Below are positions 33,122-47,888 of a stretch of 51,351 bases of DNA, in pieces. Every line of letters begins with the position of its first letter. Position 1 is the first letter of the stretch. Source of the stretch: Pseudomonadales bacterium (GTDB taxonomy: Bacteria; Pseudomonadota; Gammaproteobacteria; Pseudomonadales; DC-out160); NCBI GenBank assembly GCA_016765265.1, contig JAESQG010000001.1, forward strand, positions 1 through 51,351. The letters are read 5' to 3'. The position numbers and the translations under genes were made by a program. The notes under the pieces are model-generated. The model ran no database searches. It was not told the origin of the DNA and saw nothing but the letters and a program-made list of their open reading frames with translations.

Positions 33122-33499
33122 TCATTTGTTGGTCGTCGGCGTGATCCCTTGCCCATGCTTCACCTGCCATTCGACCGTTTCGATGATGCAGTCAAAGATC
33201 CCTGCTTTGCTGCTAAATGGATACTTGATTTCCATTCGTGTTTGCGTGTGGCTATACAACACTTCGCATCCTCGTCTGTCGATTGTCCACCCGTTATCCA
33301 ACAGCCACCTCTCCGCACGCGCGGTCACGATGTCGAGGGCGTGTTGGTCCAAAATAACAGCCCAATGGTCCGAGTCTCGACGATATGAGATGTGAAACTT
33401 TGGAATAAGGATTTCTCTCGGCCATACTTCTTCCGGCAACGCTTCCTTGAGATCAATCAACTGTTCGCGGTAAGTCATCTTTGTTTCGTTGTTAGTCAT
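33122..33499 (-). CDS. Hypothetical protein
   Basis: The start MTNNETK overlaps the upstream stop (ATGACTAA). The track ORF extends to 33580. Confidence 0.5.
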   Translation of the reverse strand: MTNNETKMTYREQLIDLKEALPEEVWPREILIPKFHISYRRDSDHWAVILDQHALDIVTARAERWLLDNGWTIDRRGCEVLYSHTQTRMEIKYPFSSKAGIFDCIIETVEWQVKHGQGITPTTNK

Positions 33500-33686
33500 C
33501 AGTGTCCCCTTCATAAGCGATCCAAGATCGACAGTTTTCACACGCAAACGAGACTTCTTTTTCAGGGTACCCGTTTTCAATAAGCCACTCGCTAGTAGGC
33601 GTATTACATTCCTTTATGCGGGGGAAGCCATATCTCCACCCTGACGGTGGATCCACCCAAGTTCCGATTACTTTTCGGTTAGTCAT
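33492..33686 (-). CDS. Small hypothetical protein
   Basis: 64 aa. The start overlaps the HisRS-like stop (ATGACTAA). Confidence 0.5.
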   Translation of the reverse strand: MTNRKVIGTWVDPPSGWRYGFPRIKECNTPTSEWLIENGYPEKEVSFACENCRSWIAYEGDTDD

Positions 33687-34341
33687 CTTTGGTTCCTTCG
33701 CACTCCGCAGATCGCTTGTGCGCGAGCATCACGCGCTCGACACCGAACGCGAAGCCCATGCCGTTCTTGTATCGACCACCTCCGACGATCTGTTTCTGAG
33801 CACCGAGCAGGTCGCAAGTGATCTCGAAGCCGCGAGCGTCTTTGTAGTACGCCGAGCCTCGATTCACATTCAGATTCAACTCAAAGTCGAACCGATCGAG
33901 GAAAGCACTGAGCATCTGAATCGCAAGAAGGGAGATTTCGTACTCGACCTCACCATCACACGATGTTGGATTCAACCACTCCACACCGAACTGCGTGAAC
34001 TCGCGGTAGCGGCCCTCTTGCGGTTTGTCGTACCGCCAGCACCGCTCGGCGTAGTAGACCAGCGTGTCCGCTGGGAACGCATCGGCGATCGCTGAGATGG
34101 TGTTGGTGCATTCCGGACGCAGACACAGCGGGCGGCCTTTGCGGTCGGCGAACTCGTACATGCGCAAATCGGGTGCAAGTTTTTCGGTGTAGAACGGGGC
34201 GGAGTCCAGCGAGGGGAGCCGGATGGGTTGGCAGCCAAAGTTGGCGGCAATGTCCTCGCTCGATCGGATGATGCGTTGCATGAGGGCAGCGTCGTCGCCG
34301 GTTCGGATGTGTGTGCCCTTGACGGGCTTGTAGTCAGTCAT
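33679..34341 (-). CDS. Truncated histidyl-tRNA synthetase/HisZ-like class II catalytic core (no anticodon-binding domain)
   Basis: MYEFADRKGRPLCLRPECT; YYAERCWRYDKPQEGRYREFTQFG (motif 2); AYYKDARGFE; GGGRYKNG...GFAFGVERV (HisB/motif 3). Only 220 aa. Confidence 0.75.
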   Translation of the reverse strand: MTDYKPVKGTHIRTGDDAALMQRIIRSSEDIAANFGCQPIRLPSLDSAPFYTEKLAPDLRMYEFADRKGRPLCLRPECTNTISAIADAFPADTLVYYAERCWRYDKPQEGRYREFTQFGVEWLNPTSCDGEVEYEISLLAIQMLSAFLDRFDFELNLNVNRGSAYYKDARGFEITCDLLGAQKQIVGGGRYKNGMGFAFGVERVMLAHKRSAECEGTKDD

Positions 34342-34380
34342 TCTTTGATTCCCTTTGAGTTGGGCGAGGTGTAAGGGTGA

Positions 34381-34545: not shown

Positions 34546-34567
34546 TTGTGATTCCTTTCTTGGTCAG

Positions 34568-34918
34568 TCATTCTTTGATCTCCATTACTTCGATTGCGAG
34601 GCTGACGACGGCGTAGCGGAAAGGTTGGCCGCTGCACGGAAGGAAGCGTTGGTAATCTTCATCGCACGCATCGAGGAACCACCGCCCATCCATCTGCCCG
34701 TTTATACTGAACCCCTGGATATAGTTGGTGCCAGCCCACCGCAGCAACTCCAACGCTGCGTCCGTGCAGTCGCGGGGGTCGGGTACCCTCCCGCCTCTTA
34801 CATGTTCGGGGTATGGACTAAACCCAGACCCTTTGCCGAGGCAGTAGACCTCCTGCCAGCCCTCTTTCTTTGAAATCATCTTCGCAGTCGCCGAGTCGTT
34901 TGGTCTAGTTGGGGTCAT
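34568..34918 (-). CDS. Hypothetical protein, paralog of 35511-35870
   Basis: The C-terminus FRYAVVSLAIEVMEIKE matches FCYAVINLAIELMEIKDE in the paralog, and about 45 bp of DNA similarity underlies it. Confidence 0.55.
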   Translation of the reverse strand: MTPTRPNDSATAKMISKKEGWQEVYCLGKGSGFSPYPEHVRGGRVPDPRDCTDAALELLRWAGTNYIQGFSINGQMDGRWFLDACDEDYQRFLPCSGQPFRYAVVSLAIEVMEIKE

Positions 34919-36949: not shown

Positions 36950-37251
36950 GCACCACCCTTCTCTTCTTTGAGTATTTCAAGCACCGTTGCAATGATTTGG
37001 TCGCGGATCACGAGTATGCCGAGGATTACGAAAATCATATCTATAACGGATCCGTACCGAGATTCTGCATCATTGTTCCACTCGAAGAGTGTGTTTTGCA
37101 AAATATAGAATACAATCAGTATAACGAAAAAAACGATCGACCTCTTTCCGTACTTGTTCATTCTGTTTCCTTTCGTTGGGTGTTGATCGAGTTGGCGAGG
37201 ATGATGCGTTGCCCCGATCCCGTCGCACACGCTGGCGTAGTTGATGGTCAT
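36946..37251 (-). CDS. Small membrane protein
   Basis: Two hydrophobic segments (SIVFFVILIVFYIL and MIFVILGILVI). ATG 37251 overlaps the methylase stop (ATGA). An alternative start at 37161 follows AAAGGAAACAGA. Confidence 0.5.
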   Translation of the reverse strand: MTINYASVCDGIGATHHPRQLDQHPTKGNRMNKYGKRSIVFFVILIVFYILQNTLFEWNNDAESRYGSVIDMIFVILGILVIRDQIIATVLEILKEEKGGA

Positions 37252-37985
37252 AGGGTGGCACCTGCTTCAAGCAGGCCCTCGCTTGCAAGCCTCGCGTTCG
37301 CCGATTCAACATATTCGGGATTTGTATCGCATCCAATATACCGACGACCGAGGCGCAACGCCACCCGAGCGAGCGATCCAGATCCGGAAAACTGTTCTGC
37401 AACAAGATCGCCTACATTGGTGTAGGCGTGTACCAGTGTTTCAAGCGGCTCGGGCGGGAGTTGGCATGGATGCCACTTCACACGGTCATTGCTTGTGCCC
37501 TGGAGCCGCCTGACAGTCCAAACATCACCTGGCACACGCGGACCCGCAGCCCGCTTATCACCAGCGATCATCCGCTGAGAAGGGACACGGATATTCTCGG
37601 TGTTCCAAGTGTTTTTGTCGAGCCCGAATCGCTGATGAATGAACAGGTGTCGATGTTCGTTAGTGAACTTGCGATCAGTGTACTGGGCAAATCGCTCTTG
37701 CCAGATAATCCGATTGATCCGTGTTCCAATAAACTCGGTCATCGCTCGCCCGGCATCGTCGGCCCATGATTCAGAAATCAGCAAGGCGACTACGCCGCCC
37801 GGACGAACACACTCGGAGGCCGACAAGATCCATTCACGAAGCGCGAATAGGTATCCGTATTTGCTCATAGCGTCGGATTCGTCTTTCCCGTAGTCCACAC
37901 CAAGGTTGTACGGCGGGTCAAGGAACACTAGGTCGGCGTTTGGTGCGATTGATTTGATGTCGTTGGCGTTGTGTTCAAGGATCAT
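37248..37985 (-). CDS. DNA methyltransferase, beta-class N6-adenine (or N4-cytosine) type
   Basis: DLVFLDPPYNLG (motif IV, DPPY) is near the N-terminus and FSGSGSLARVALRLGRRYIGCD (motif I, FxGxG) near the C-terminus. Confidence 0.85.
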   Translation of the reverse strand: MILEHNANDIKSIAPNADLVFLDPPYNLGVDYGKDESDAMSKYGYLFALREWILSASECVRPGGVVALLISESWADDAGRAMTEFIGTRINRIIWQERFAQYTDRKFTNEHRHLFIHQRFGLDKNTWNTENIRVPSQRMIAGDKRAAGPRVPGDVWTVRRLQGTSNDRVKWHPCQLPPEPLETLVHAYTNVGDLVAEQFSGSGSLARVALRLGRRYIGCDTNPEYVESANARLASEGLLEAGATL

Positions 37986-45680: not shown

Positions 45681-46014
45681 GATCCCCTTTCTCTGTCACC
45701 CAAGTATCGTGAATCACATCAGCGTCGATGCGATCCAGAAATGATATTGCCAACTTCGCCGCGTCGCGTGGTCCGATAGAACCCAAAGGCAGCCTTGTAT
45801 CGAACAACCACTCATGGAAACGAACGAAGTCTGCCTTGGAAATAAAACGCTCCAAGCGATCCATGTCTCGCCATTGCTTCTTACGCACACGGACAAACAC
45901 GCCAATCGTGTACCGATCCGCCGTCCGGCAAAACGCACGATAATCCTTCGCCACCTCGCGGAACCCGCGATCAAGCACCGTCGAAGTGTCGCCAATCAGA
46001 TCGTTCTCAATCAT
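45652..46014 (-). CDS. Hypothetical protein
   Basis: 120 aa. The start region GGTGAAGGATGATT is the same as at the TyrRS start and overlaps the TyrRS stop. Confidence 0.5.
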   Translation of the reverse strand: MIENDLIGDTSTVLDRGFREVAKDYRAFCRTADRYTIGVFVRVRKKQWRDMDRLERFISKADFVRFHEWLFDTRLPLGSIGPRDAAKLAISFLDRIDADVIHDTWVTEKGDLDEWAKTEG

Positions 46015-47143
46015 CCTTCACCATAACCCTTTCACCCACAACAACAGACACACAGTTCCTCTTACCCCTTTGTAATACACCATTTTTCATGATAATCTCA
46101 TGTATAGAGGAAACGGTATTCCCGTCAATCTTCACGCCGCGACCAGTAATGAGCCTTCTCGCATCCGAACGAGACTGGGCCATTCCACACAAAACAAGAG
46201 CATCAACAACGGTAGATCCGAGAGGCACATCCGTTTTACCATGAGGGATGGCAACTTTCTGCTTGCACACCAAGTCAAACCTCTTCATTGAATCTTTCGC
46301 GGCTTGCCTGCCATGAAGCATCTCAACGACCGCAAGTGCCAGTGCTTGTTTTTTTACAACCTCTAGCCCTGGCGGAGAAGAACACTGGAACAAAAGAGAA
46401 AACCACTCATCCATCAGGCCGTCTGGAATGCTCATTGTTTTTCCAAAAGCGTCGTCGGGCGTGCTGTTCATTGAAATATGGTTTCCAAGCGACTTGCTCA
46501 TCTTGTGGCTTCCGTCTGTTCCAGTAAGTATCGGAAACAGCATAATCGCCTGCTTTTTCATCCCAAGACGACCCATCAAATCCCTTGCAAGTGTACAGTT
46601 TGCCAACTGGTCATTGCCCCCAATCTCAAGGTCGCACCCAAGGCTGATGGAATCCCACGCCTGAAGGACAGGGCACACCATCTCAAGAATGGATATTGAC
46701 CCCCCGGAAGCATGTCTTTTCGAGAAATGATCCCTGCCAAGCATTGAACGAATAGACACACTGCCAAGAAGCTCAAAAAGATCATCCATTGGCGGTCTTA
46801 TGGCCGAGTTCTTTACAAAACCCCACTCCCCCCCATCGCCCATGAATCGACATATCTGGGCCATGATATCAGCCGCATTTCTCGATGTTTCACTAAACGA
46901 AAGCAATGGCCTCGATGTGTCTCGCCCCGACGGATCGCCAATCTGTCCGGTTATGTCACCAATGACAACAGTACCCTTGCAACCACGACGAACCAAAGAA
47001 CGAAATGCTGAAAACGGGACAAGGTGCCCAATGTGCAAATCGCGCCCCGTCGCATCAATGCCGATCTTTACATGCGACCCCAACGGAATGCCATTCGCAA
47101 GGCCGATCGTTTGCGAAGCCGTCTTTTCAAGATCCGTAATCAT
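46007..47143 (-). CDS. tyrS: Tyrosyl-tRNA synthetase (type 2, with a C-terminal S4-like domain)
   Basis: GIDATGRDLHIGHLVP...VIGDITGQIGDPSGRD (HIGH region typical of TyrRS), LQAWD, GGNDQ, HKMSKSLGN (KMSKS), and a C-terminal SRSDARRLITGRGVKIDGNTV (S4-like). Confidence 0.9.
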   Translation of the reverse strand: MITDLEKTASQTIGLANGIPLGSHVKIGIDATGRDLHIGHLVPFSAFRSLVRRGCKGTVVIGDITGQIGDPSGRDTSRPLLSFSETSRNAADIMAQICRFMGDGGEWGFVKNSAIRPPMDDLFELLGSVSIRSMLGRDHFSKRHASGGSISILEMVCPVLQAWDSISLGCDLEIGGNDQLANCTLARDLMGRLGMKKQAIMLFPILTGTDGSHKMSKSLGNHISMNSTPDDAFGKTMSIPDGLMDEWFSLLFQCSSPPGLEVVKKQALALAVVEMLHGRQAAKDSMKRFDLVCKQKVAIPHGKTDVPLGSTVVDALVLCGMAQSRSDARRLITGRGVKIDGNTVSSIHEIIMKNGVLQRGKRNCVSVVVGERVMVKDD

Positions 47144-47646: not shown

Positions 47647-47725
47647 TGCCCCTGTCGGGGATCGAACCCGAGATCGCCCGAATCTCTTTGCAAGACCGGG
47701 AATGTTTCCATTACACCATCGGGGC
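47647..47725 (-). tRNA. tRNA-like gene, 79 nt, non-canonical anticodon arm (anticodon possibly GCA, or CAA in another fold)
   Basis: Sense: GCCCCGAUGGUGUAAUGGAAACAUUCCCGGUCUUGCAAAGAGAUUCGGGCGAUCUCGGGUUCGAUCCCCGACAGGGGCA. The T arm is clear (UCGGG-UUCGAUC-CCCGA), as are the D arm and an acceptor stem with 5 good pairs. The anticodon region is 7 nt too long. Confidence 0.55.
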
Positions 47726-47737
47726 TACCGTCGTAAA

Positions 47738-47810
47738 TAGCGGATATCGGACTCGAACCGATGACCTTCGGGTTATGAGCCCGGCATTCTACCAACTCAA
47801 CTAATCCGCA
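47738..47810 (-). tRNA. tRNA-Met(CAU), initiator-like
   Basis: Sense: UGCGGAUUAGUUGAGUUGGUAGAAUGCCGGGCUCAUAACCCGAAGGUCAUCGGUUCGAGUCCGAUAUCCGCUA. It forms a cloverleaf. The anticodon arm GGGCUCAUAACCC has three G:C pairs, as in bacterial tRNA-fMet. There is a U1-U72 mismatch and no encoded CCA. Confidence 0.85.
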
Positions 47811-47888
47811 ATCATCAAGAAACACGGGTCGCTTCACCGTCACCAAGGCGGGAGAGGCGGAAATCCGTGCGTACTTCGTATCATACCG

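Follow-up and report, generated by a model that had tools for sequence, protein, structure and literature searches.

The mini-HisRS gene and its product

The stretch of DNA analyzed in this study (the window) comprises 51,351 nucleotides of contig JAESQG010000001.1, which is assigned to a Pseudomonadales bacterium. On its minus strand, an open reading frame (ORF) at 33679..34341 with an ATG start codes for a protein of 220 aa. This protein, here called mini-HisRS, resembles the catalytic core of histidyl-tRNA synthetase (HisRS), which is an aminoacyl-tRNA synthetase (aaRS) of class II. An earlier note, made from the sequence alone, had described it as a stand-alone HisRS/HisZ-like class II core in a phage early operon and had supposed that it probably acts on something other than a standard tRNA-His. 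The coding sequence and its motifs are listed below; all conservation counts refer to an alignment of 94 family sequences.

33679..34341, minus strand: mini-HisRS coding sequence; class II HisRS catalytic core according to PF13393, TIGR00442, a two-stretch HisRS match, AlphaFold2 and Foldseek
34201..34236, minus strand: motif 1 region GCQPIRLPSLDS, residues 36-47; class II dimer interface; P43 in 94/94; aligns to E. coli 'IRLPIVE'
Residues 61-79, minus strand: MYEFADRKGRPLCLRPECT block, located in the ORF
34132..34146, minus strand: DRKGR loop, residues 66-70; equivalent to T. thermophilus 70-DRGGR-74 of the G-1 pocket across the dimer; D66 in 94/94, R70 in 93/94, G69 in 59/94
34105..34119, minus strand: RPECT, residues 75-79; histidine-binding RPE(G)T motif; P76, E77 and T79 invariant
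33979..34053, minus strand: motif 2 and its loop YAERCWRYDKPQEGRYREFTQFGVE, residues 97-121; R103, R111, R113, Q117 and E121 in 94/94, Q108 in 93/94, R or K at position 106 in 81/94
33844..33861, minus strand: HisA motif RGSAYY, residues 161-166; aligns to E. coli 'RGLDYY'; R161, G162 and Y166 invariant; R161 corresponds to the catalytic E. coli R259
33769..33783, minus strand: HisB motif GGGRY, residues 187-191; aligns to E. coli 'AGGRY'; G187, G189 and Y191 invariant
33730..33762, minus strand: motif 3 GMGFAFGVERV, residues 194-204; aligns to E. coli 'GFAMGLERL'; G194, G196, G200 and R203 invariant; R203 is the ATP-binding arginine

Profile searches placed mini-HisRS with HisRS. The Pfam model PF13393 (tRNA-synt_His) was matched with E=7.2e-17 and 62 bits against a cutoff of 25, PF00587 was also matched, and the NCBIfam hisS model TIGR00442 gave E=5.2e-38 and 131.1 bits, which does not reach its equivalog cutoff of 286.75 bits. 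The HisZ models were clearly weaker than hisS: the best of them, TIGR00443, scored 77.7 bits against a cutoff of 271.65, and the NF0089xx series scored at most 53 bits against cutoffs above 380. All matching NCBIfam models score mini-HisRS below their curated cutoff, and PHROGs contained no significant family for it (best E=0.06). Of the double likeness proposed in the earlier note, the one to HisRS is strong, whereas the comparison with HisZ is weak in view of 77.7 against 131 bits and of the catalytic residues that have been kept.

HisRS structures from E. coli, T. thermophilus, archaea and eukaryotes matched the mini-HisRS sequence with E=1e-15 to 1e-7 (E. coli HisRS, 1KMM: E=2.4e-15). The match to the E. 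coli enzyme consists of two stretches, in which residues 7-142 of the query correspond to E. coli residues 8-150 and residues 153-205 to residues 251-313. A hidden Markov model (HMM) of 420 positions, built from 61 full-length HisRS sequences and run at --max sensitivity, was covered by mini-HisRS at positions 2-155 and 248-319. Positions 156-247, representing the insertion domain of ~90-100 residues, and positions 320-420, representing the C-terminal anticodon-binding domain of ~100 residues, were unmatched, and Pfam reported no HGTP_anticodon match. This two-stretch alignment to full-length HisRS indicates that both domains are missing. No remnants of either were found in any stop-to-stop frame of the 51-kb window (best E=1.7), and the downstream ORF at 33492-33686, which had already been judged not to look like an anticodon-binding domain, showed no match to the HisRS profile. 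The C-terminus of mini-HisRS lies 16 residues past motif 3, close to the ~20 aa estimated before. By these alignments, mini-HisRS is a HisRS core without insertion domain, anticodon-binding domain or remnants of them; the two-stretch match and the HMM coverage thus confirm the stand-alone core proposed initially.

Structure prediction and superposition led to the same assignment. The AlphaFold2 model is compact (pLDDT 91.7, pTM 0.89), and in Foldseek searches the best structural matches were HisRS catalytic domains (1KMM: E=8e-17, TMq 0.83). HisZ structures ranked below HisRS (1Z7N: TMq 0.77), and pyrrolysyl-tRNA synthetase (PylRS) cores ranked lower still.

The sequence blocks quoted in the earlier note are all present in the ORF, i.e. 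MYEFADRKGRPLCLRPECT, motif 2 (YAERCWRYDKPQEGRYREFTQFGVE), AYYKDARGFE, GGGRY and motif 3, with the RGSAYY/AYYKDARGFE block spanning residues 161-173. In motif 2, R103 is equivalent to E. coli R113, D105 to E. coli E115 and T. thermophilus E114, K106 to E. coli R116 and T. thermophilus R115, Q108 to E. coli Q118, R111 to E. coli R121, and R113 to E. coli R123 and T. thermophilus R122; G110 is invariant. Every catalytic residue for histidine and ATP is found among the invariant positions of the family, and the motif 2 and motif 3 arginines R103, R111, R113 and R203 are retained. The family furthermore has protein residues of its own that are absent from HisRS, namely the invariant C101 and the near-invariant C73 and R11. 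The copy in the window deviates from the family by H11 instead of R, P39, R60 instead of Q, C78 instead of G, S163 and a deletion of 3 residues in a loop.

Family, phage setting and gene neighborhoods

At a threshold of E<=1e-3, a large protein search yielded at least 366 clusters of homologs. The best 120 of these were 41-57% identical to the query and, with few exceptions, 144-250 aa in length, mostly 200-225 aa. In a library of representatives at 50% identity, short, single-stretch forms accounted for 58 of the 70 best representatives (E 3e-51 to ~1e-19); the first full-length HisRS appeared at rank 49 (E ~4e-22), and the full-length sequences, of ~420 aa and up, gave two-stretch matches. 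Over the shared core columns, the nearest neighbor was of the same kind for 105 out of 105 short and 65 out of 65 full-length sequences, and average-linkage clustering split the two forms perfectly. This separation argues for one coherent lineage with a short architecture rather than for repeated accidents. As judged from these comparisons, mini-HisRS is a large family of constant length and not a decayed fragment.

A metagenomic homolog of 564 aa (P0144) carries an intein (Intein_splicing and LAGLIDADG endonuclease) right after 'PE' of the RPE(G)T motif. Insertion at conserved sites is typical of inteins in proteins that must stay functional. Apart from this intein, only unannotated extensions were found as domain fusions among the homologs; a RhuM 'fusion' may be a gene-calling artefact.

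The family is encoded on 48 IMG/VR viral contigs, many of them jumbo phages of 250-560 kb and some of them contigs of 15-100 kb. A T7-like contig that codes for a single-subunit RNA polymerase also carries mini-HisRS. Further carriers are the huge phages LR745206 and LR756502 and Sinorhizobium phage Phosso, with the annotation 'histidyl-tRNA synthetase', as well as phages of 20-60 kb with few or no tRNA genes. A minority of copies reside on bacterial chromosomes of Undibacterium, Kangiellaceae, Pleionea, Pseudomonas and Paraburkholderia; except for Pleionea, which is described below, their gene contexts are heterogeneous and uninformative. Public homologs bear the automatic names 'histidyl-tRNA synthetase' or 'ATP phosphoribosyltransferase regulatory subunit'.

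A fold search in BFVD brought up phage proteins of 185-222 aa (A0A292GIB7, A0A6J5M2P2, A0A2I7SAH4, A0A141HRQ2 and K7QJG2 of Escherichia phage phAPEC8) that share the class II core-only fold at 8-15% identity. The predicted folds suggest that further, unrelated families of mini class II aaRS-like proteins exist in phages.

The window itself represents all or much of a phage genome. On its plus strand are the genes for terminase large subunit and portal, and mini-HisRS is surrounded on the minus strand by genes for SSB, ERF recombinase, YqaJ exonuclease, an SNF2/DEAD helicase, a ParB-like protein and an N6/N4 DNA methylase, an early or replication gene block in agreement with the early operon assumed before. 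No megablast match to the window was obtained among 50,697 phage records. Thirteen metagenomic contigs with lengths of up to 52 kb encode a protein identical to mini-HisRS (100%); one of them was deposited in a Pseudomonadales metagenome-assembled genome with the gene named 'ATP phosphoribosyltransferase regulatory subunit'. The other features of the window that concern us here are as follows.

34350..34355, minus strand: putative ribosome-binding site AAGGGA, read from the sequence, with a spacing of 8 nt to the mini-HisRS ATG
33492..33686, minus strand: downstream 64-aa ORF; 8-nt overlap between its ATG and the mini-HisRS stop (AAAGATGACTAA); not an anticodon-binding domain
46007..47143, minus strand: full-length tyrosyl-tRNA synthetase (TyrRS), 378 aa; Pfam tRNA-synt_1b E=2.8e-47 and an S4-like C-terminal S4 domain; TIGR00234 tyrS 230 bits against a cutoff of 113.8
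47737..47811, minus strand: initiator-like tRNA-Met(CAT) found by ARAGORN; Rfam RF00005 59.5 bits; mismatch at 1:72; anticodon stem closed by three G:C pairs (GGG/CCC)
47647..47725, minus strand: weak tRNA-like element missed by ARAGORN; Rfam RF00005 32.3 bits (gathering score 29)

The Shine-Dalgarno-like AAGGGA upstream and the 8-nt stop/start overlap with the next small ORF point to a tightly packed leftward operon. The 64-aa ORF was also called as a gene in a related contig (L139), and its overlap puts it into one operon with mini-HisRS, where translational coupling is possible. Two gene starts on the minus strand, 34339-34362 and 34565-34590, have near-identical translation-initiation regions (…ATCAAAGAATGAC…), and several early genes with such regions begin with MTD, MTN or MTP. 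These regions may represent a start module that has been duplicated or conserved. The gene upstream of the conserved early block, at 37248-37985 on the minus strand, encodes a 245-aa N6/N4 methylase. The same slot is occupied in otherwise near-identical contigs by a 398-aa PF00145 C5-methylase (L137) or by a 380-aa gene of unknown type (L135). By gene content, this is a methyltransferase cassette that has been swapped, at least in L137.

A full TyrRS is unusual for a phage of ~51 kb; its gene shares the strand of the tRNA genes and is located just downstream of them. The 1:72 mismatch and the GGG/CCC pairs are hallmarks of initiator tRNAs, and the phage seems to carry an initiator-like tRNA of its own. 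ARAGORN returned this tRNA-Met(CAT) alone, and neither ARAGORN nor Rfam detected a tRNA-His in the window, as had been stated before. The element at 47647-47725 has acceptor-stem mismatches and an aberrant anticodon-loop region of 13 nt, in which an extended stem may carry a UUGCAAA loop. The element could represent a pseudo-tRNA, a tRNA with an intron or a decoy; its anticodon-loop region contains no GUG, and it is not a tRNA-His.

Neighboring genes were surveyed by clustering 3020 ORFs located within 6 kb of mini-HisRS in ~60 loci. No conserved partner gene emerged, and the only clusters of large size consisted of ORFs antisense to mini-HisRS itself. Sporadic neighbors were an unannotated 145-aa ORF (7 loci), NADAR, a nucleoside deoxyribosyltransferase-like protein and a tryptophanyl-tRNA synthetase (TrpRS) core. 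A stand-alone anticodon-binding-domain partner was found near none of the loci; the sole match to this domain was the C-terminus of a 394-aa protein in L122, which aligns to that region of the HisRS profile. Since neither a conserved neighbor nor an anticodon-binding domain is present nearby, mini-HisRS evidently works without a dedicated co-encoded partner. There was likewise no recurrent neighbor family that could provide a co-encoded acceptor (carrier protein, EF-P or biosynthetic cluster) in these loci, and hisG was found neither among the ORFs within 6 kb nor in Pfam-annotated contexts.

In jumbo phages, mini-HisRS is situated inside long arrays of tRNA genes on the same strand. The tRNA species found in the largest number of loci was tRNA-His (20 loci). 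It directly abuts the mini-HisRS ORF in three of them (L088, L110 and L117) and lies 276 nt upstream in Phosso (L001). When tRNA labels were shuffled within each of the 21 tRNA-bearing loci, tRNA-His was enriched within 1 kb of the gene (10 out of 21 loci against 5.1 expected, p=0.004) and as the nearest tRNA (5 loci against 2.0 expected, p=0.037). These p-values are optimistic because the loci are phylogenetically related, while the direction of the effect is clear. Nearly all of the phage tRNA-His genes encode G-1 and most encode C73, i.e. the canonical bacterial identity set. Three tRNA-His genes of 87-90 nt with G-1:C73 have a long variable arm and a class II-like shape (L088, 7880-7966; L117, 7790-7879; L090, 3849-3936). 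Two of these three directly abut mini-HisRS, and adjoining genes for tRNA-Asn and tRNA-Trp are over-long as well. Such tRNA shapes might be tolerated by an enzyme devoid of body-binding domains.

One bacterial locus stands out. In Pleionea sediminis (L005; SUNB01000004.1, 10001-11832), mini-HisRS is followed after a gap of 10 nt by a polynucleotide kinase (PNK)-like AAA_33 gene, which in turn overlaps a gene for a Thg1/Thg1C-like protein (tRNA-His guanylyltransferase-like) by 11 nt. These three genes form an apparent operon that, by the domain assignments, may constitute a module for repair of the tRNA-His 5'-end and recharging. A further Thg1-domain gene is located 6 kb from mini-HisRS in a viral locus (L134, 14953-15822). 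Neither Thg1 nor PNK was found in the window, and in the ~60 loci they were seen only in these two cases, adjacent in the former and at 6 kb in the latter. The rare linkage is still telling, as enzymes of the Thg1 family build or repair exactly the tRNA 5'-end that HisRS reads.

Jumbo-phage loci also contain a TrpRS-like core of 240 aa within ~6 kb of mini-HisRS (L124, 4137-4859, plus strand; also L089, L106, L117 and L128). It covers positions 6-225 of the 328 positions of TIGR00233, the C-terminal anticodon-binding part being missing. Core-only aaRSs may therefore be a general theme in jumbo phages that carry mini-HisRS.

Acceptor-end contacts and proposed function

In the complex of T. thermophilus HisRS with its tRNA, the G-1 phosphate is bound by two arginines of the motif 2 loop, Arg115 and Arg122, and part of the G-1 pocket is provided by the 70'-DRGGR-74' loop from the partner subunit (PMC4357726). 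Glu114 contacts A76 and Arg7 contacts the C68 phosphate; Glu64 and Glu114 are essential, and the insertion-domain mutants R197A and K209A retain most activity (PMC4357726). Mapping of these residues, with T. thermophilus residue 65 in register with M61 of mini-HisRS, gave the following correspondences.

T. thermophilus R7: K8 in mini-HisRS; R or K in 91/94
T. thermophilus E64: R60 in the window copy; Q in 89/94
T. thermophilus D70-R74: D66-R70 in mini-HisRS; D66 in 94/94, R70 in 93/94, G69 in 59/94
T. thermophilus E114: D105 in mini-HisRS; E or D in 94/94
T. thermophilus R115: K106 in mini-HisRS; R or K in 81/94
T. thermophilus R122: R113 in mini-HisRS; 94/94

Furthermore, 93 of the 94 sequences keep Q108, the equivalent of E. 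coli Q118, which covaries with C73 of the tRNA. By this mapping, the residues that recognize G-1:C73, the 5'-phosphate and A76 are retained, except for position 68 and the equivalent of T. thermophilus E64. Their conservation in the family implies that selection acts on the reading head for the acceptor end, which is part of the retained core. HisRS accepts minihelices and microhelices; the E. coli enzyme charges minihelices, and the anticodon is a weak determinant for it (PMC4357726). Engineered HisRS fragments of 119-145 aa activate histidine (PMC3060492).

We consider it moderately likely that mini-HisRS is a natural minimal HisRS that charges the tRNA-His of the host by recognition of the acceptor end (G-1:C73). 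It would bind histidine and ATP and form histidyl-adenylate by means of RPExT, the motif 2 arginines, the HisA arginine, the HisB tyrosine and the motif 3 arginine; for this step, the residues are conserved and the chemistry is deduced from them. Histidine would then be transferred to tRNA-His, with only the G-1:C73 pair, the 5'-phosphate and the CCA end being read through contacts from the motif 2 loop and from the DRxGR loop of the partner subunit. The enzyme probably acts as a homodimer formed via the retained motif 1 interface. As the phage encodes no tRNA-His, the substrate would be that of the host, and in jumbo phages the enzyme would also serve phage-encoded tRNA-His including the variants with a long variable arm. 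Being co-expressed with early replication and recombination genes, it would together with the phage TyrRS and the initiator-like tRNA boost or safeguard translation capacity during infection. Phage TyrRS, initiator-like tRNA and the TrpRS cores of other mini-HisRS phages fit a role in translation. A bolder proposal, which we put forward tentatively, is that this family of ~210 residues might be, to our knowledge, the smallest natural free-standing aaRS, a phage class II 'urzyme-like' enzyme that uses the G-1:C73 code alone, with neither anticodon reading nor an insertion clamp. A linked possibility, in the case of the Pleionea trio, is that the enzyme and tRNA 5'-end repair may restore and recharge tRNA-His damaged by nucleases of the host or of competitors.

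Several points weigh against a tRNA-charging role. Both reaction steps are deduced from conservation. The loss of two tRNA-binding modules should cost affinity, much of it through the anticodon-binding domain; the E. coli Ncat fragment studied by Augustine and Francklyn in 1997 is said to be a monomer of much lower activity. Clamping of the acceptor stem is normally the task of the insertion domain (PMC4357726). The first glycine of the G-1 pocket is variable (K, G or S at position 68), and position 69 is D in 23 of 94 sequences. In the window copy, R60 replaces the Q of the family at the position of Glu64, which is essential in T. thermophilus, and by its deviations this copy is placed in a divergent subgroup of the family. 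The enrichment of tRNA-His is modest, and many members, the window copy included, occur in phages without tRNA genes nearby. Seen in 2 of ~60 loci, the linkage to Thg1 stays a lead and not a rule.

A histidine-adenylating ligase with a non-tRNA acceptor, i.e. a protein, a carrier domain, a small molecule or a nucleic-acid modification site, as known from amino acid:carrier-protein ligases, PoxA/GenX, GluQRS and AsnA, appears unlikely. It would account for the invariance of all adenylation residues in a protein that has lost both tRNA-body-binding modules, for the family's own invariant or near-invariant protein residues (C101; C73 and R11) and for the lack of nearby tRNA genes in most small-phage copies; truncated aaRS paralogs, moreover, usually have non-canonical acceptors (PMC9437257). 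However, the acceptor-end contact residues are conserved although such a ligase would not need them, mini-HisRS is embedded in tRNA arrays with an enrichment of tRNA-His, and there are neither informative domain fusions nor conserved neighbors in ~60 loci, the recurrent ones being antisense ORF artefacts. These findings also bear on the supposition of the earlier note that a standard tRNA-His is probably not its target. This supposition is unsupported, given the conserved contacts to G-1, the 5'-phosphate and A76; the position beside tRNA-His genes with G-1 and C73, the Thg1-like neighbor in one bacterial copy and the lack of a conserved carrier protein or acceptor gene count against it as well.

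Slightly less probable still is a role as a modulator. In this case, mini-HisRS would either form heterodimers with the full-length HisRS of the host via motif 1, thereby tuning or poisoning it, or act like HisZ on the short-form HisG (ATP-PRT) of the host and rewire histidine biosynthesis. Motif 1 and its invariant proline are retained, the HisZ models match significantly (TIGR00443: E=8e-22), as does the HisZ fold (1Z7N, TMq 0.77), and the automatic NCBI name of the protein is 'ATP phosphoribosyltransferase regulatory subunit'. In addition, HisZ together with short-form HisG is in use in Pseudomonadales hosts. On the other hand, hisS outscores HisZ by 131 to 77.7 bits with the HisZ cutoff of 271.65 not being approached, a purely regulatory or poisoning subunit would not need strictly invariant R103, R111, R161 and R203, hisG is absent from the neighbors, and tRNA arrays fit poorly with regulation of histidine biosynthesis.

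A functionless, decayed fragment of a captured hisS, for which the shortness and the score below the TIGR00442 trusted cutoff (131 against 286.75 bits) might speak, is effectively excluded by family-level conservation as read from the alignments: the family is large and constant in length with all catalytic residues in invariant columns, the domains were excised cleanly with no remnants in other frames, the predicted fold is confident and compact, the identical sequence is found on 13 contigs, and the short forms cluster apart instead of being scattered truncations.

Novelty and comparison with known systems

Full-text literature searches found no publication describing a core-only HisRS in phages, in line with the earlier note, which knew of no described phage system of this kind. 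HisZ is the only HisRS paralog listed in the aaRS-paralog reviews searched, and no curated family model for mini-HisRS was found. The claim to novelty holds for the family, which is without a publication, and not for the sequence as such, since homologs are already stored in public databases under automatic names. Mini-HisRS is best described as a natural, phage-borne, core-only HisRS; phage aaRSs as such are already known. The family needs a profile of its own, as current pipelines label it HisRS or HisZ.

If mini-HisRS is active on tRNA-His, nature has repeatedly kept a class II synthetase at ~210 residues. This would provide direct evolutionary support for the view that a catalytic core with acceptor-stem recognition suffices, as put forward in work on minihelices, the 'operational RNA code' and urzymes, and a conserved natural minimal class II synthetase makes this idea directly testable. 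It would also explain a recurrent mis-annotated gene in jumbo and mid-size phages, add HisRS to the translation functions supplied by phages, and offer a very small and compact orthogonal HisRS scaffold for engineering. Should mini-HisRS turn out not to be a tRNA ligase, HisZ would be joined by a second functional paralog of HisRS.

Like the aaRSs of huge phages and giant viruses, mini-HisRS is a virus-encoded translation component found beside viral tRNA arrays and other aaRS genes. The huge-phage enzymes are treated as host-related, and the parts of that report available to us make no mention of histidyl-tRNA synthetase or of truncated forms (PMC7162821); mini-HisRS differs from them in being core-only. 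A stand-alone aaRS core without anticodon-binding domain is also seen in PoxA/GenX, GluQRS/YadB, amino acid:carrier-protein ligases and AsnA. These truncated paralogs derive from LysRS, GluRS, SerRS/GlyRS or AspRS and have defined non-canonical acceptors that are often encoded nearby (PMC9437257). In contrast, mini-HisRS has no conserved partner gene and keeps contact residues specific for tRNA-His.

HisZ is likewise a HisRS paralog without anticodon-binding domain, and its profile and fold similarity to mini-HisRS is weaker but significant. It has ~310-390 aa, keeps the insertion region between the motifs and works with HisG, whereas mini-HisRS has ~210 aa and no hisG neighbor. HisZ is without aminoacylation activity (PMC5388404), and mini-HisRS differs from it in keeping all HisRS catalytic residues.

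The closest likeness is to HisRS itself (E. coli 1KMM, T. thermophilus 4RDX). Common to both are the class II fold (TMq 0.83) and motifs 1-3 as well as the HisRS-specific motifs RPE(G)T, HisA and HisB; they also share the residues in the motif 2 loop by which G-1:C73 and A76 are read. Mini-HisRS differs in its half size, in lacking the insertion and anticodon-binding domains, in scoring below the TIGR00442 cutoff, in forming a separate cluster and in its family-specific protein residues C101, near-invariant C73 and R11. In being cut to the active-site core, it resembles two kinds of laboratory constructs, Ncat HisRS (residues 1-320) and the HisRS urzymes of 119-145 aa (PMC3060492). Ncat keeps the helical insertion, which mini-HisRS lacks. 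The urzymes join residue 134 to motif 3 (PMC3060492), while the natural join in mini-HisRS leads from about E. coli residue 150 to about residue 251. Urzymes delete the HisA loop and HisB; by keeping HisA, HisB and motif 3, mini-HisRS is more complete than these engineered fragments. In contrast to Ncat and the urzymes, mini-HisRS, as known from sequence, is an evolutionarily stable protein that has been maintained by selection.

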